A stretch of DNA of 64,000 nt from an uncultured Candidatus Rokubacteria bacterium (GCA_963771355.1 CAVYTA010000006.1:1216001-1280000), one strand, 5' to 3'. Positions 35,114-52,512 are shown, numbered from the stretch's first letter. Notes: generated by a model not told the origin, from the sequence alone. Program-made: numbers and translations.

Positions 35114-35650
35114 TTACCCGCCGGCCGGGTGCGTATGGCCGTAGGGCACGTCGAGGACATAGATGATCTTGCCCAGGGCGATGAACTCGGCGATGGCCCA
35201 GGACAGCTCCAGCGTCTCGTCATCGCTGAACTGGCCCCGGAGGTCCGCCCAGAGAGCGTCATCCACCTTGTGATGATCCTCGTACATGCGGTCCGCGTAG
35301 CGGAGCGCTACCTTCTCGCGCTCGGTGAACGGCCCGCGCTCGTAGTCGCCCAGCGCGGTCACCAGCTCCTCGGTGATCCCTTCACGCCTGCCCGAGGCGT
35401 AGCGGGTGGTCATTCAGTAGTGGCAGGTATTGCGCTGGGCCAGCCGCAGCCGGACCAGCTCCTTGGTGCGGTGCTCCACCAGCCCCAGCCGCACCAGCGG
35501 CGAGTAGAAGCGGACGAAGCGCTTCAGCGCCTCCGGCAGCCGCCCAAAGGTGCGGATGAAGTTGGGATCGCCCCCGTCCGCCGTCCACTTGGCCAGCATG
35601 TCGCGGAGCTCGGGATCGAGTCCGTCCTCGGGCATCATGGGCATCCGCAC
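35114..35650 (-). CDS. AhpD/carboxymuconolactone decarboxylase family protein, predicted selenoprotein (CxxU)
   Basis: Two abutting in-frame ORFs joined by TGA (35414-35416): KELVRLRLAQRNTCHY-U-MTTRY...FTEREKVALRYA. Confidence 0.85.
35378..35406 (-). promoter_or_regulatory. Bacterial SECIS-like hairpin
   Basis: UACGCCU-CGGGC-AGGCGUG stem-loop; the loop starts 19 nt after the UGA and has G at its second position. Confidence 0.7.
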
Positions 35651-47695: not shown

Positions 47696-48706
47696 TCAGA
47701 GGATCTTCGCCATGACTTGCTCGGCGAAGAGCGTGAAGATGTGCTCGCGCGCCGCGAAGCCCTCGCCGGGCACCTGCGGCAGCAGGATGATGCGCCCGAT
47801 CTCCGGCACCGTCATCACCCGCCGCACCCCCTCGCGCACCTCGTCCGGATTGCCGGCGAGCGCCATCAGGTCCACCAAGTGGTCGGGCACGAGCTCGCGG
47901 TGCCGCGAGGCGGCGGTGGCGTGCTGGAAGGCGTCGTATTCCCGCCGCAGCCGCTCCACCGCCGGCCGGTCCTCCTCGCGGAACGGTACCGGCAGCGGAT
48001 GGCGCAGCGCGGAGGCCACGCGCCCGCGCGCGTGGTCGCGTGCCACCGTGCGGTCGGAGCCGATCGACATCGGCGCCCAGATGGCGAGGTCGAGATCGGC
48101 CAGCGTCTTGCCCGCCTCGCGCGCCCCCTGGGCCACGAAGCCGAGGCCCGCCCGCAGGATGTCGGGATCCACGCTGGAGTACATGATGACGCCGTCGCCC
48201 ACCCGGCCCGCGGCGGCGAGCATGCGGGGGCCCGAGCCGGCCGCGTAGACCGGAATGTCGCGCGGACGCTCGAGCCACGCCAGCCGCGCATCGGTGCCCC
48301 GCTCGAGGCGGATCGACTCGCCCTTCGTGAGGCGACGGAGCGACGTGGCCATGGACTCGAGCGTCGCCGTGCGCGCGGTCTCGGCGAGGGTGAGCCCCAT
48401 GGTCTGGGCCGCGCTTCCGCCGGTCCCCACGCCGACCACGGTACGGCCCGGGATCAGCTCGTCCAGGCTCGCGATGGCGCTGGCGGTCACGGAGATGTGC
48501 CGCGTGTGCGGGACGGTGATGCCGGGCCCGAGCCGGACGCGCGAGGTGCCGAGCGCGCACGCGGTGAGGGTGACCCAGAGCTCGCGGCACACGAGGTGGG
48601 TGTCGGTGATCCACACCGTGTCATAGCCGAGCGACTCGGCAAGCTGCGCCTGCTTCACGATGGTGGCCACCGGCTGGCTGCCGAGAATCCCCACGTCGAA
48701 CTTCAT
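47696..48706 (-). CDS. LLM class (Mer-like) oxidoreductase
   Basis: AESLGYDTVWITD, AGSGPRML, GDGVI. Confidence 0.88.
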   Translation of the reverse strand: MKFDVGILGSQPVATIVKQAQLAESLGYDTVWITDTHLVCRELWVTLTACALGTSRVRLGPGITVPHTRHISVTASAIASLDELIPGRTVVGVGTGGSAAQTMGLTLAETARTATLESMATSLRRLTKGESIRLERGTDARLAWLERPRDIPVYAAGSGPRMLAAAGRVGDGVIMYSSVDPDILRAGLGFVAQGAREAGKTLADLDLAIWAPMSIGSDRTVARDHARGRVASALRHPLPVPFREEDRPAVERLRREYDAFQHATAASRHRELVPDHLVDLMALAGNPDEVREGVRRVMTVPEIGRIILLPQVPGEGFAAREHIFTLFAEQVMAKIL

Positions 48707-48723
48707 GCTAGCCTGGACCCTCC

Positions 48724-49758
48724 ATGTCGCCCGTCGTCGTCCTCCTCAGCCCGACCCCTCTCGACTCGCCGCGCGGAAACGCCGTCACCGTAGCACGGAT
48801 CGCCCGCGGCCTGCGGGCCCGCGGCGTGGAGGCGCACGTGTGGCACGCGCCCGACGCCGCGGCTGCCGCCGCGCTCGAGTCGGAGGCGGCTCGAATGCGC
48901 CCGGCCCTGGTGCACGCCTTCCACGCCCGGCACGCCGGACCGCTCGGACGGACGCTGGCGGCGGCCGCGGGCGCCCCGCTGGTGATCACGCTCACCGGCA
49001 CGGACGTCAGCGAGGATCTCCGGCATCCCGCGCACGGGCCCGTGGTCCGCGAGACGCTGCGCGCCGCCGCGGGCGTGACCGCGTTCCACACGAGCGTGGT
49101 GGGCGCGCTGGGCGCCGACGGGCCCGCGCTGGGGGACCGGCTCGCCGTGGTGCCGCAGAGCGTGAGCTTCGAGCCGTCGGGCGCAGCCACCCCGCCGCCG
49201 ATCTCCGGCGATCCGTGCCTCCTCTTCCCGGCCGGGATCCGCGCCGTGAAGCGGCCCGGACTGCCGCTGTCCGCGCTGGAGGGACTCGCGCGGCGCCGGC
49301 CGGCCGCGCGGCTCTGGTACGCCGGCCCCGTGCTCGAGCCGGCGGAGCACGCGCGGCTCGTCGCCGGCCTCGCCGGTCGTCCCTGGGCGCGCCAGCTCGG
49401 CGCGGTACCCCACGCCGCGATGCCGGCGCTGCTCGCCACGGCGGACATCGTGCTCAACTGCTCGCGCTCCGAGGGCGGCATGGCCAATGCCGTGCTCGAG
49501 GCGCTCGCCCTCGGTCGTGCCGTGCTCGCCTCGGACATCCCGGGCAACCGCTCCCTCATCGAGCCCGGCGTCACGGGCCTCCTCTTCCACGGGGAGACGG
49601 AGCTGGCGGAGGGCGCCGAGCGGCTCGCCGCCGATCCCGCGCTCCGGAGCCGCCTCGGCGAGGCGGGACGCCGGCTGGTGGCGGAGCGCTTCACGCCCGC
49701 CGTCGAGGCCGAGGGGTATCTGGCGATCTACGCGCGGGTCTGGGCCGATGGGCGCTGA
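48724..49758 (+). CDS. GT4 glycosyltransferase, SenB/GLT1D1-like subfamily
   Basis: GNAVT, HAFHA, ITLTGTD, PQSV, SRSEGG.ANAVLEA, SDIPGN. Confidence 0.85.
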   Translation: MSPVVVLLSPTPLDSPRGNAVTVARIARGLRARGVEAHVWHAPDAAAAAALESEAARMRPALVHAFHARHAGPLGRTLAAAAGAPLVITLTGTDVSEDLRHPAHGPVVRETLRAAAGVTAFHTSVVGALGADGPALGDRLAVVPQSVSFEPSGAATPPPISGDPCLLFPAGIRAVKRPGLPLSALEGLARRRPAARLWYAGPVLEPAEHARLVAGLAGRPWARQLGAVPHAAMPALLATADIVLNCSRSEGGMANAVLEALALGRAVLASDIPGNRSLIEPGVTGLLFHGETELAEGAERLAADPALRSRLGEAGRRLVAERFTPAVEAEGYLAIYARVWADGR

Positions 49759-50458
49759 GGCGCGCGACGACGGACGGCTCCTCTTCCTCTACGGCGGCTG
49801 CACCTTCCAGCTCGACGCCGGGGTGCAGGCGCCCAAGGCGGGCTCGCTCCTCTTCTGCCGCCATCTCGGCGCCCGCGCCGGCGAGCGCGTGCTCGAGCTC
49901 GGCTCGGGCGCGGGACTGGCCGCCGTGCTGGCCGCACGTGCGGGTGCGCATGTCGTCGCCACCGACATCCGCCCGGAGGCGGTGGCCTGCACGCGCGACA
50001 ATGCCGCCCGCAACGGCGTGCGCGTGGACGCGCGCGAGGGCGACGGCTTCGCGCCGGTGCGGGGGATGCGCTTCGACCTCATCGCGACGAGCCCGCCCCA
50101 GATGCCGACCCCGCCCGGCTTCGAGCGCGACGACGCCGAGGCCGCCGCCGACAACGGCGGGCCCGACGGCTGGGCGCTGCTCGAGCGGGTGATCCTCGAG
50201 TGCCCCGCGTATCTCACCCCCGGGGGGCGGCTCGTGTTCACGCTCTTCGACTTCCTCGGCATCGAGCGCGCGCGGCACCGCCTGCGCGCGGCCGGGCTCG
50301 AGCCCGCGGTGCTCGCGCGCGAGGCGCAGCCCTTTCCCCGCCTCGGCCACGAGCGGCTCGACTATCTGCGCGGCCTCGACGTGGAGGGCACCATTCCCCG
50401 TGACGCGCGTCCCCGCACCGTCGAGCGCTACGTCCTCGAGGGGCGCCGGCCGGCATGA
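49748..50458 (+). CDS. Class I SAM-dependent methyltransferase (HemK-related)
   Basis: VLELGSGAG, ATDI, FDLIATSPPQ (NPPY-like motif), LTPGG. Confidence 0.88.
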   Translation: MGAEARDDGRLLFLYGGCTFQLDAGVQAPKAGSLLFCRHLGARAGERVLELGSGAGLAAVLAARAGAHVVATDIRPEAVACTRDNAARNGVRVDAREGDGFAPVRGMRFDLIATSPPQMPTPPGFERDDAEAAADNGGPDGWALLERVILECPAYLTPGGRLVFTLFDFLGIERARHRLRAAGLEPAVLAREAQPFPRLGHERLDYLRGLDVEGTIPRDARPRTVERYVLEGRRPA

Positions 50459-51393
50459 CGGCGCGTGCCTTCCTCGGCATCGACGTGGGCGGCACCACCA
50501 CCTCGGCGGGACTGGTGACGGCTCAGGGCCGCGTCGTGGCCGGCCGCCGCCGCCCCACCCATGGACCGGCCGGCGGCGACGCGGTGCCGCGACTCCTCGC
50601 GCTGGCCACGGAGGTCGCGGGGCTGGCGCGGCCGCGCGGGTACCGGCTCGCCGGCGTCGGCGCGGGCGTGCCCGGCATCGTCGACGGCGCCACCGGCGTC
50701 GTCGGCGGCGAGGCGCACAATGTGCCCGAGCTCGGCGGCGTGCCGCTGGCGCGCCTCCTCACCCGCGCGCTCGGCGTGCCCGCCGCGGTGGACAATGACG
50801 TGAACGCCCTCGCGCTCGGCGAGTGGATGTGGGGGGCGGGGCGCGGCGCGCGCTCCCTCGTGCTGCTCGCGCTCGGGACGGGGGTGGGCGGCGGCATCGT
50901 GCTCGACGGGCGGCTCTACCGCGGGGCCGCCGGCTTCGGCGGCGAGCTGGGCCATGTCCCGGTGGAGCTCCACGGCCGGCCCTGCGTGTGCGGGGCGCGG
51001 GGCTGCCTCAAGGCCTACGTCGCCGGGCCCGATCTCTCCGCGGAGGCCTCGCGGCGGCTCGGCCGCCCCGTGGATGCGGCGGAGCTCTTCCGCCTGGCCG
51101 CGGGCGGCGACGCGACGGCGGCGGCCGTCGTCGACCAGGCGCTGGAGGCGCTCGCCGCCGGCCTCACCATCATCGTCAACGGGCTCAATCCGGAGCGGCT
51201 GCTGCTGGCCGGCGGCATCGCCCGCGCGCTCGCCCCTCGCGCCGCCGAGCTCCGCGCGCGGCTCGCCCGCCGTGCGTATGCCGGCGCGCTCGCCACCACC
51301 TCCCTCCGCTTTCTCGGCCTCGACAAGCGCACCACGGTGCGGGGCGGCGCCGCGCTGGCGCGCCAGGCGGCAATCGCGCGCGCTCACGCCTGA
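50455..51393 (+). CDS. ROK family sugar kinase
   Basis: GIDVGGT, NDVN, GTGVGGG, GELGH, CVCGARGC. Confidence 0.92.
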   Translation: MTARAFLGIDVGGTTTSAGLVTAQGRVVAGRRRPTHGPAGGDAVPRLLALATEVAGLARPRGYRLAGVGAGVPGIVDGATGVVGGEAHNVPELGGVPLARLLTRALGVPAAVDNDVNALALGEWMWGAGRGARSLVLLALGTGVGGGIVLDGRLYRGAAGFGGELGHVPVELHGRPCVCGARGCLKAYVAGPDLSAEASRRLGRPVDAAELFRLAAGGDATAAAVVDQALEALAAGLTIIVNGLNPERLLLAGGIARALAPRAAELRARLARRAYAGALATTSLRFLGLDKRTTVRGGAALARQAAIARAHA

Positions 51394-51454: not shown

Positions 51455-52300
51455 ATGGGCCAGATTGTGTTTGCCGGCGCGATGTCGCATGTCCTCGACC
51501 CCGACTACTACGACCGCGCCTGTGGAGCGGCCGGCCGCCAGAAGGTCACGGAGTGCATGGCGGAGATCGCGCGCATGGGCGAGCGCCTCACCGCGGCGCA
51601 ACCGGATGCTCTCATCGTGGTGGCCGACGACCATCTCAACGCCTTCTCGTTCAACGCGGTGCCGGCCATCTGCGTGCGCATCGGGCGAGACGTGCAGCGC
51701 ATGGTGCAGGACCACGCCGAAGCCTTCGACAAGGTGCTCGACCACATGCCGGAGCGGTATCCGCTCCACGAGGGCCTCGCCAACGAGATCCTGGAGCGGG
51801 GGATGGCGGCCGACTTCGACCTTGCGTTGTCGTGGGAGGCGCCGGTGGACCATGCCTTCCTGAGCCCGGTCAATACCATGCACGGCACCCGCCCCATCCC
51901 GCCCCTGGTGCCCATCTGGGTGAACTCCTTCGTCGCGCCCCAGCCCACCGCGCGGCGCTGCTTCGCGTTCGGGCGGCACATCGCAAAGGTCGTCGCCGCC
52001 GCGCCCTGGCGGGTGGGCATCATCGCCACCGGCGGGCTCTCGCATTTCCCGGAGCTGTCGCTGCCGCGCGTGGGCGAGACCGACACCGTGTTCGACCGGC
52101 GGCTCATCCACTGGATGGAGGCGGGCGAGCACGAGCCGCTGCAGGCGCTCACCGCGGACGAGCTGCACAAGGCCGGGGAGCACGAGTTCCTCAACTGGAT
52201 GGTCCTGCTCGGCGCCGTCTCCCCTGCCCGCGCCGCCGTGCGCTACTTCGGCGAGCTGCCGCGCATCAACCTCGCCGCGGTGGAGTGGAGCCTCGCGTGA
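51455..52300 (+). CDS. Extradiol dioxygenase class III, large subunit (LigB-like)
   Basis: MSH, DDH, VDHA, ATGGLSH, EFLNW. Confidence 0.85.
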   Translation: MGQIVFAGAMSHVLDPDYYDRACGAAGRQKVTECMAEIARMGERLTAAQPDALIVVADDHLNAFSFNAVPAICVRIGRDVQRMVQDHAEAFDKVLDHMPERYPLHEGLANEILERGMAADFDLALSWEAPVDHAFLSPVNTMHGTRPIPPLVPIWVNSFVAPQPTARRCFAFGRHIAKVVAAAPWRVGIIATGGLSHFPELSLPRVGETDTVFDRRLIHWMEAGEHEPLQALTADELHKAGEHEFLNWMVLLGAVSPARAAVRYFGELPRINLAAVEWSLA

Positions 52301-52512
52301 GCCGCTACGCGGTCAATAGCCTGCTCTACCGCCTGAAGAAGGACCCGGAGTACCGGGCGCGCTTCCTGGCGGACGCTCCTTCCGCGCTCGCCGGGCTGGA
52401 CCTCACCGAGGCCGAGCGCGCCGCCTTCGTCGCGCGTGACATGCGGCGGATCAACGAGCTGGGTGGGTATCTCCATCTCGTCATGTCCGTGCCCGGCCTC
52501 GCCGCTCACTGA
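52297..52512 (+). CDS. LigA-like small subunit
   Basis: YAVNSLLYRL...RARFLAD...LTEAERAAF...ELG; GTGA overlap. Confidence 0.8.
   Translation: MSRYAVNSLLYRLKKDPEYRARFLADAPSALAGLDLTEAERAAFVARDMRRINELGGYLHLVMSVPGLAAH

Follow-up and report, generated by a model that had tools for sequence, protein, structure and literature searches.

Three overlapping genes of an uncultured Rokubacteriales bacterium, which encode a GT4 glycosyltransferase (GT), a SAM-dependent methyltransferase (MT) and a ROK-family kinase, form a real, conserved and uncharacterised module whose predicted chemistry is a variation on that of SenB (Table 1). In the window, the whole stretch of 64,000 nucleotides that was analysed (C6:1216001-1280000 of genome G000), GT and MT overlap by 11 bases and MT and the kinase gene (ROK) by four, all on the plus strand, and the arrangement given in a preliminary description of this DNA is confirmed. 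Read together, the three small soluble enzymes would convert selenophosphate and a UDP-sugar into a selenosugar and further into a methylseleno-glycoside and its 6-phosphate, a reading put forward tentatively, with slightly less than even confidence in the whole.

Table 1. Coordinates of the module genes, of their diagnostic sites and of a candidate selenoprotein gene in the window.
Feature	Position	Strand	Remark
GT4 glycosyltransferase (GT), 344 aa, SenB-sister clade (NF038229-like), predicted selenosugar synthase	48724..49758	+	
Methyltransferase (MT), SAM-dependent, 236 aa, HemK/N6AMT1 fold, predicted Se-methyltransferase	49748..50458	+	
ROK-family kinase, 312 aa, predicted glycoside 6-kinase	50455..51393	+	
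GT N19-A-V-T22, equivalent to SenB N20/T23 (sugar C5' hydroxymethyl contacts)	48778..48789	+	
GT T91-G-T93-D94, equivalent to SenB T83/T85/D86 (selenophosphate pocket)	48994..49005	+	
GT K176, counterpart of SenB K158, for which Se-P cleavage is proposed; frequent in other GT4s as well	49249..49251	+	
MT SPPQ replacing NPPY	50090..50101	+	PQ invariant in 44/44 homologues; first position N/S/T/G
ROK K186 at the site of the NagK anomeric-OH-binding acid	51010..51012	+	D187 in P. shigelloides, E186 in E. coli
CMD/AhpD-like candidate selenoprotein	35114..35650	-	In-frame TGA 35414-35416, giving CHYU; outside the module

The initial assignment of the GT to the SenB subfamily was based on motifs that are all found (GNAVT at residues 18-22, HA at 67-68, LTGTD at 90-94, QS at 145-146 and SRSEGG at 247-252) and holds in part, as the enzyme groups with SenB and not with ordinary GT4s, but on a separate branch and below the SenB cut-off. 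Its best NCBIfam profile, matched over the full length with 339.4 bits, is that of the uncharacterised GPMC family 4 glycosyltransferase (NF038229; cut-off 400 not reached), followed by the SenB profile TIGR04348 with 105.9 bits (cut-off 300 not reached) and by other generic GT4 profiles with 55 bits or less. The cut-off of NF038229 is passed in none of 101 genomes of the phylum, and the partners of the GPMC glycosyltransferase, an MBL hydrolase, a conserved hypothetical protein and a sigma-54 regulator, are absent among the genes flanking the window GT. The best PDB matches by sequence are SenBs, and a profile-based PDB search scores SenB and BshA alike. The AlphaFold model (pLDDT 92.6) shows a GT-B fold with TM-scores of 0.72-0.77 to SenB (liganded and RsSenB chains; 0.69 for 8fbx) and of up to 0.83 to BshA, GlgM or MshA, so that the fold search does not single out SenB against these three enzymes and was discarded as a pointer.

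In SenB, selenophosphate is bound by N20, H58, R61, T83, T85 and R155, K158 is assigned to cleavage of the Se-P bond, and N20, T23 and E231 contact the sugar (PMC10891094, PMC10702425). At 15 signature sites, comprising 14 residues named in either of these two sources and the conserved R25, the window GT equals SenB at 14, the sole difference being H70 in place of R61, where most relatives have R. The signature string is identical between most Rokubacteria GTs and three of four true SenBs, and each of 12 other GT4s matches at six sites or fewer. Within the pocket and catalytic set (N20, T23, H58, R61, T83, T85, D86, Q131, R155, K158, E231 and E239) 11 of 12 residues are identical in the window GT, although K176, R173, E250 and E259 recur widely in other GT4s. 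A set of 142 full-length members that represent the family at 50% clustering conserves N19 in 135, H67 in 123, T93 in 133, D94 in 140 and K176 in all. A quick tree of 73 rows, with Rokubacterial outgroups only and subject to a long-branch warning, unites the GT family and SenB in one clade against the 12 other GT4s (SH-aLRT 100), in which four SenBs occupy their own branch (100) and the window GT belongs, together with NF038229, to a separate clade of 52 rows (95). Judged from its sequence, the GT probably works like SenB but is no member of SenB. With SenB (TIGR04348; PDB 8JJN, 8JJT, 8FBX, 8K5U) of the senABC selenoneine pathway it has in common the GT-B fold, the pocket and catalytic residues and a SelD in the genome, whereas identity to a true SenB is 29% and neither senA nor senC is adjacent. 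Since the GT is instead partnered by a methyltransferase and by a kinase, its sugar product would be retained and would not serve as selenium donor to hercynine.

The lack of an adjacent senA or selD had been recognised at the outset. In G000, selD is located on contig C4 (C4:225335-226252, L157) and encodes a fused oxidoreductase-SelD with a CGGCAAK motif, which scores above the TIGR00476 and TIGR03169 cut-offs and below the cut-off for not-SelD fusions; selA, with a SelB-like frame behind it, is also present, and the best SenA-like match (241.8 bits, cut-off 420 not reached) lies approximately 1 Mb away from the module. In the triad-forming lineage the type of selD has changed, with the Cys fused SelD in the genus versus a short SelD with an in-frame TGA in most relatives. 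The selenoprotein candidate of the window is real as a sequence and marks, as first suggested, selenium use by the organism, but it has no tie to the triad.

Genome-level co-occurrence of GT and selD is uninformative because selD is near-universal in the Rokubacteria set (38 of the 41 genomes with a GT, against 55 of all 61) as well as in Desulfobacterota (20 of 22 versus 141 of 151). With respect to neighbourhoods, a selenium gene (selD, LysR_Sec or the TIGR04553 putative selenate transporter) is found within 5 kb of the GT at 21 of 33 non-triad loci in relatives, namely selD at 15, LysR_Sec at 15 and the TIGR04553 transporter at nine; eight of the remaining loci are cut by a contig end (less than 2 kb of upstream DNA) and four are without selenium genes. 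Among non-triad metagenome GT loci, 39 of 55 carry selD. LysR_Sec, in the available part of the source reported only in SelD-containing organisms (PMC5322559), stands directly downstream of the GT at all eight loci from other orders of the class, and the order YdjC-GT-selD occurs at one of 21 Desulfobacterota loci (20 genome loci and L010, G241 being left out). The linkage of GT and selD in Rokubacteria is one inherited arrangement and not one operon, as a divergent anti-sigma gene is usually located between them; in the genus of the window both genes are gone from this ancestral locus. Inherited gene order accounts for the Rokubacteria linkage but for neither the SenB-like pocket nor the two other arrangements.

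That the acceptor is of a phospho-type without selenium (thiophosphate, sulfide or another phosphorylated small molecule), leading to a methylthio- or other glycoside phosphate, appears fairly unlikely, as the GT stands beside selenium genes in three different arrangements. Such an acceptor would be consistent with the phosphate bound in the SenB crystal pocket (PMC10891094) and with the same or a near-identical pocket in family GTs from six archaeal genomes in which no SelD over the cut-off was found (G138, G139, G140, G414, G589, G590; completeness not stated), the two weak matches that were checked being ThiL. It would also agree with phosphatase-like partners elsewhere, a PhnP-like MBL protein in the GPMC set and a HAD phosphatase that, along with a hydrolase and an MFS transporter, adjoins the GT homologue of a Streptomyces plasmid, where no selenium gene lies within 18.8 kb. 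From pocket and neighbourhoods we infer that the acceptor of the GT is probably selenophosphate, supplied in trans by the C4 SelD, and a selenosugar of some form would be its probable product. As does SenB, which forms a 1-seleno-beta-sugar (10.1101/2022.04.13.486033), the GT would join selenophosphate to a UDP-sugar, with UDP-GlcNAc the probable donor. Upstream of the GT, DsbD/CcdA-like and thioredoxin-like genes were observed at archaeal and Rokubacterial loci (L011, L013, L056, L065, L078, L079) and might serve the redox needs of a product with a thiol or selenol group. Canonical senB, considered as a stand-in where the GT is missing, was detected in 0 of 61 genomes at E 1e-36, a threshold at which the controls gave no match either. 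Elsewhere in the class, L278:668-2352 (G071), on a contig assigned to Methylomirabilota, holds a true senB next to a SenA-like gene.

The second gene product had been described as a HemK-like methyltransferase with a variant SPPQ motif, and indeed SPPQ occupies residues 115-118 in place of the NPPY of HemK/PrmC glutamine methyltransferases, and the score exceeds the TIGR00537 (HemK2/MTQ2) cut-off (97.1 versus 87 bits). Across 44 homologues the first position of the motif is N in 23, S in 10, T in eight and G in three, the Asn thus being replaced in 21, the second is P in 37, A in five and L in two, and the last two are P and Q throughout. NPPY uses its Asn and Tyr to position a weak nitrogen nucleophile, residues that a selenolate would not need. 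Loss of these residues would fit a selenolate acceptor; provided that selenophosphate is the acceptor of the GT, it is moderately likely that selenium rather than nitrogen is methylated, whereby the MT would cap the selenol to give a methylseleno-glycoside. With HemK2/N6AMT1 and the aminosugar N-methyltransferases (GenN and apramycin N-methyltransferase) the MT shares the class I fold and a GG-x-DG segment, but differs by [NSTG]-[PAL]-P-Q in place of NPPY, by an identity of 25% or less in the fold search and by its linkage to a GT. Among solved structures, the closest in fold are N-methyltransferases (N6AMT1/KMT9, gentamicin GenN, PrmC, AerE), no S/Se-methyltransferase was singled out by the fold search, and in the ESM Atlas the MT matches generic methyltransferase clusters only. 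With aminosugar N-methyltransferases, including those for gentamicin and apramycin, among the nearest solved relatives, N-methylation remains a serious rival.

In this alternative, the GT makes a selenosugar that the deacetylase YdjC deacetylates in trans, and the MT methylates the freed 2-amine to yield an N-methyl-glucosamine selenoglycoside. YdjC, which the preliminary description does not mention, is part of the ancestral MT operon: when unlinked from the GT, the MT is found in the order small protein-MT-YdjC-ROK, with MT-YdjC-ROK at 25 of 28 MT loci, two others ending at YdjC and one being of the triad type. The adjacency recurs in Desulfobacterota, where the flanks of the GT contain YdjC at 14 and an MT homologue at nine of the 21 loci, eight of these nine carrying an ATP-grasp ligase domain (Pfam checked on one). 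The YdjC frame of G000 is open, and the enzyme could supply the free amine. On the other hand, YdjC was left behind when the triad moved. In G000 the old MT locus now reads small protein-YdjC-ADH (C6:1439480-1441609) and the old GT locus LysR-transglutaminase-antisigma-MoxR (C6:1370783-1374509); MT, ROK and GT have thus left two loci and now stand together. The same gap, with small protein-YdjC-ADH at the old locus, is seen in G141 with gene order MT-ROK-GT, so that in both genomes the three genes were relocated together and YdjC stayed. Furthermore, YdjC is retained in 18 of 19 genomes without GT and MT, and all six such genomes examined at the ancestral MT locus show small protein-YdjC without MT and ROK; a GT::MT fusion (P0292) contains no YdjC domain, and homologues do not consistently retain the Asn of the amine/amide-activating motif. 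N-methylation is an unlikely outcome and Se-methylation stays the preferred one. The small protein of these loci, a conserved protein of 103 aa without Pfam match or ESM Atlas match above 0.9, is encoded immediately 5' of MT or YdjC throughout Rokubacteriales (C6:1441307-1441609 in G000; L137:4698-5006). At L187:6095-6763, a PIG-L deacetylase gene is found 3' of the GT where other loci have YdjC, a possible non-orthologous replacement.

The third enzyme, annotated from the start as a sugar kinase, matches the ROK profile PF00480 with catalytic Asp and zinc motif and stays below every NCBIfam cut-off. It shares DxGGT, the N-D catalytic pair, the E/H sugar contacts and the zinc cysteines with ROK sugar kinases such as NagK, glucokinase and NanK, but, unlike the NagK-type kinases of free hexoses, is devoid of the acid that binds the sugar 1'-OH. 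NagK of P. shigelloides uses D105 as the base, N104 and E154 to hold the 3'-OH, and D187 to engage the 1'-OH (PMC10031466); the last residue aligns with E186 of E. coli NagK and with K186 of the window kinase. In 33 module ROKs this site is K in 17, A in 13, V in one and D in two, the acid thus being absent in 31, with N114, D115 and E164 invariant in all 33. Close homologues of the kinase have K in 119 of 120 cases, and canonical ROKs from the same genomes keep E in all seven with a readable motif. Loss of the acid fits a substrate blocked at C1, i.e. a glycoside, and a C1-substituted glycoside is a likely substrate, which would be phosphorylated at carbon 6, with the MT and kinase steps in either order. 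A paralogous ROK branch of the same clade, which occurs in two GT-less genomes, also lacks the acid (eight of eight readable among nine members), so that loss of the acid characterises a glycosyltransferase-paired subfamily rather than the triad alone; the paralogous loci L293:3003-6827, L296 and L299 adjoin an alpha/beta-hydrolase::GT28-like fusion, with an OsmC-like gene at two of the three, and form a cassette separate from the module.

Conservation of the triad, the check suggested at the outset, is evident, as GT-MT, with or without ROK, is kept in related genomes and metagenome loci. Of 61 genomes, 36 have both GT and MT and 19 have neither (55 concordant), although these kin are not independent and 14 of the 19 double absences belong to one genus; five genomes have only the GT and one only the MT, its contig beginning inside the MT. 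GT and MT are adjacent in eight of 41 GT genomes and at 24 of 80 metagenome loci, 18 of the latter with ROK. Of the 25 metagenome loci nearest to the window GT (at least 61% identity), 24 have room downstream, and in all 24 the MT directly follows the GT, which is more than chance. The GT clade is near-core in Methylomirabilota (85 of 101 genomes searched, after dropping two non-orthologous matches) and present in 22 of 151 Desulfobacterota genomes; a second fusion, P0390, joins an ATP-grasp domain to the GT. A search for homologues in phages found none. The view that a protein methyltransferase, a housekeeping sugar kinase and an orphan GT are unrelated neighbours held by inherited gene order, for which speak the restriction of the GT-MT-ROK order to one clade in the tree, a single origin with L009 that is not rejected (p-AU 0.204), the five genomes with GT and no MT match, at least two of them real losses (G038, G039), and the complete genome G067 with a GT and no MT or YdjC match, is very improbable, given joint presence or absence of GT and MT even when unlinked, the GT::MT fusion, MT-GT adjacency in a second phylum and a separate NPPY-type PrmC candidate region and canonical ROK in G000. 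An independent origin of the L009 order MT-ROK-GT was suggested by three trees and is not established.

The seleno- or thio-sugar pathway of the preliminary description is hence partly substantiated, on its selenium side, by the SenB grouping, the conserved triad, the selD, selA and selB-like genes and the linkage of the GT to selenium genes in relatives. The 6-phosphate would keep the glycoside from leaving the cell or initiate its recycling, and deacetylation by the unlinked YdjC may be a further step. The resulting compound would act as a store of, or a sink for, selenium that resists oxidation and stays in the cell. In its most specific form, the proposal of a second, selenoneine-independent selenium pathway in Rokubacteria and other uncultured bacteria, in which a methyltransferase dedicated to selenosugars and a ROK kinase specific for glycosides lead to a methylseleno-N-acetylhexosamine and its 6-phosphate, is doubtful as yet. 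If true, it would define genetically a way to make the type of compound that is the main selenosugar excreted by animals. The very few selenium-specific pathways would gain a new end product, the uncharacterised NF038229 family a function, and methylselenosugar synthesis a model. Urinary 1-beta-methylseleno-N-acetylgalactosamine belongs to the type of compound predicted here but is made in animals, and the accessible part of the source names no synthase (PMC12936836). In the literature examined, SenB-type enzymes are described only as the first step to selenoneine, and a search that left subscription journals and supplements mostly outside its scope found no account of the GT clade or of a bacterial methylselenosugar pathway. 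Actinomycetes reportedly harbour a non-canonical sen cluster that includes a selenosugar lyase together with a deacetylase, which may narrow the novelty.

The GT and a divergent luciferase-like gene have their start codons only 17 bases apart (window 48706-48724), with no clear ribosome-binding site, and their promoters must be located within coding sequence; no sigma-70 promoter or Rfam match was obtained. The RNA data comprise four runs of one study, as contigs only, with pieces of up to 411 bases among the matches listed. Downstream of the triad, a LigB-like extradiol dioxygenase gene and a small LigA-like gene follow on the plus strand (window 51455-52512); like the upstream LLM gene, they are kept only in the closest relatives and were excluded as module parts.
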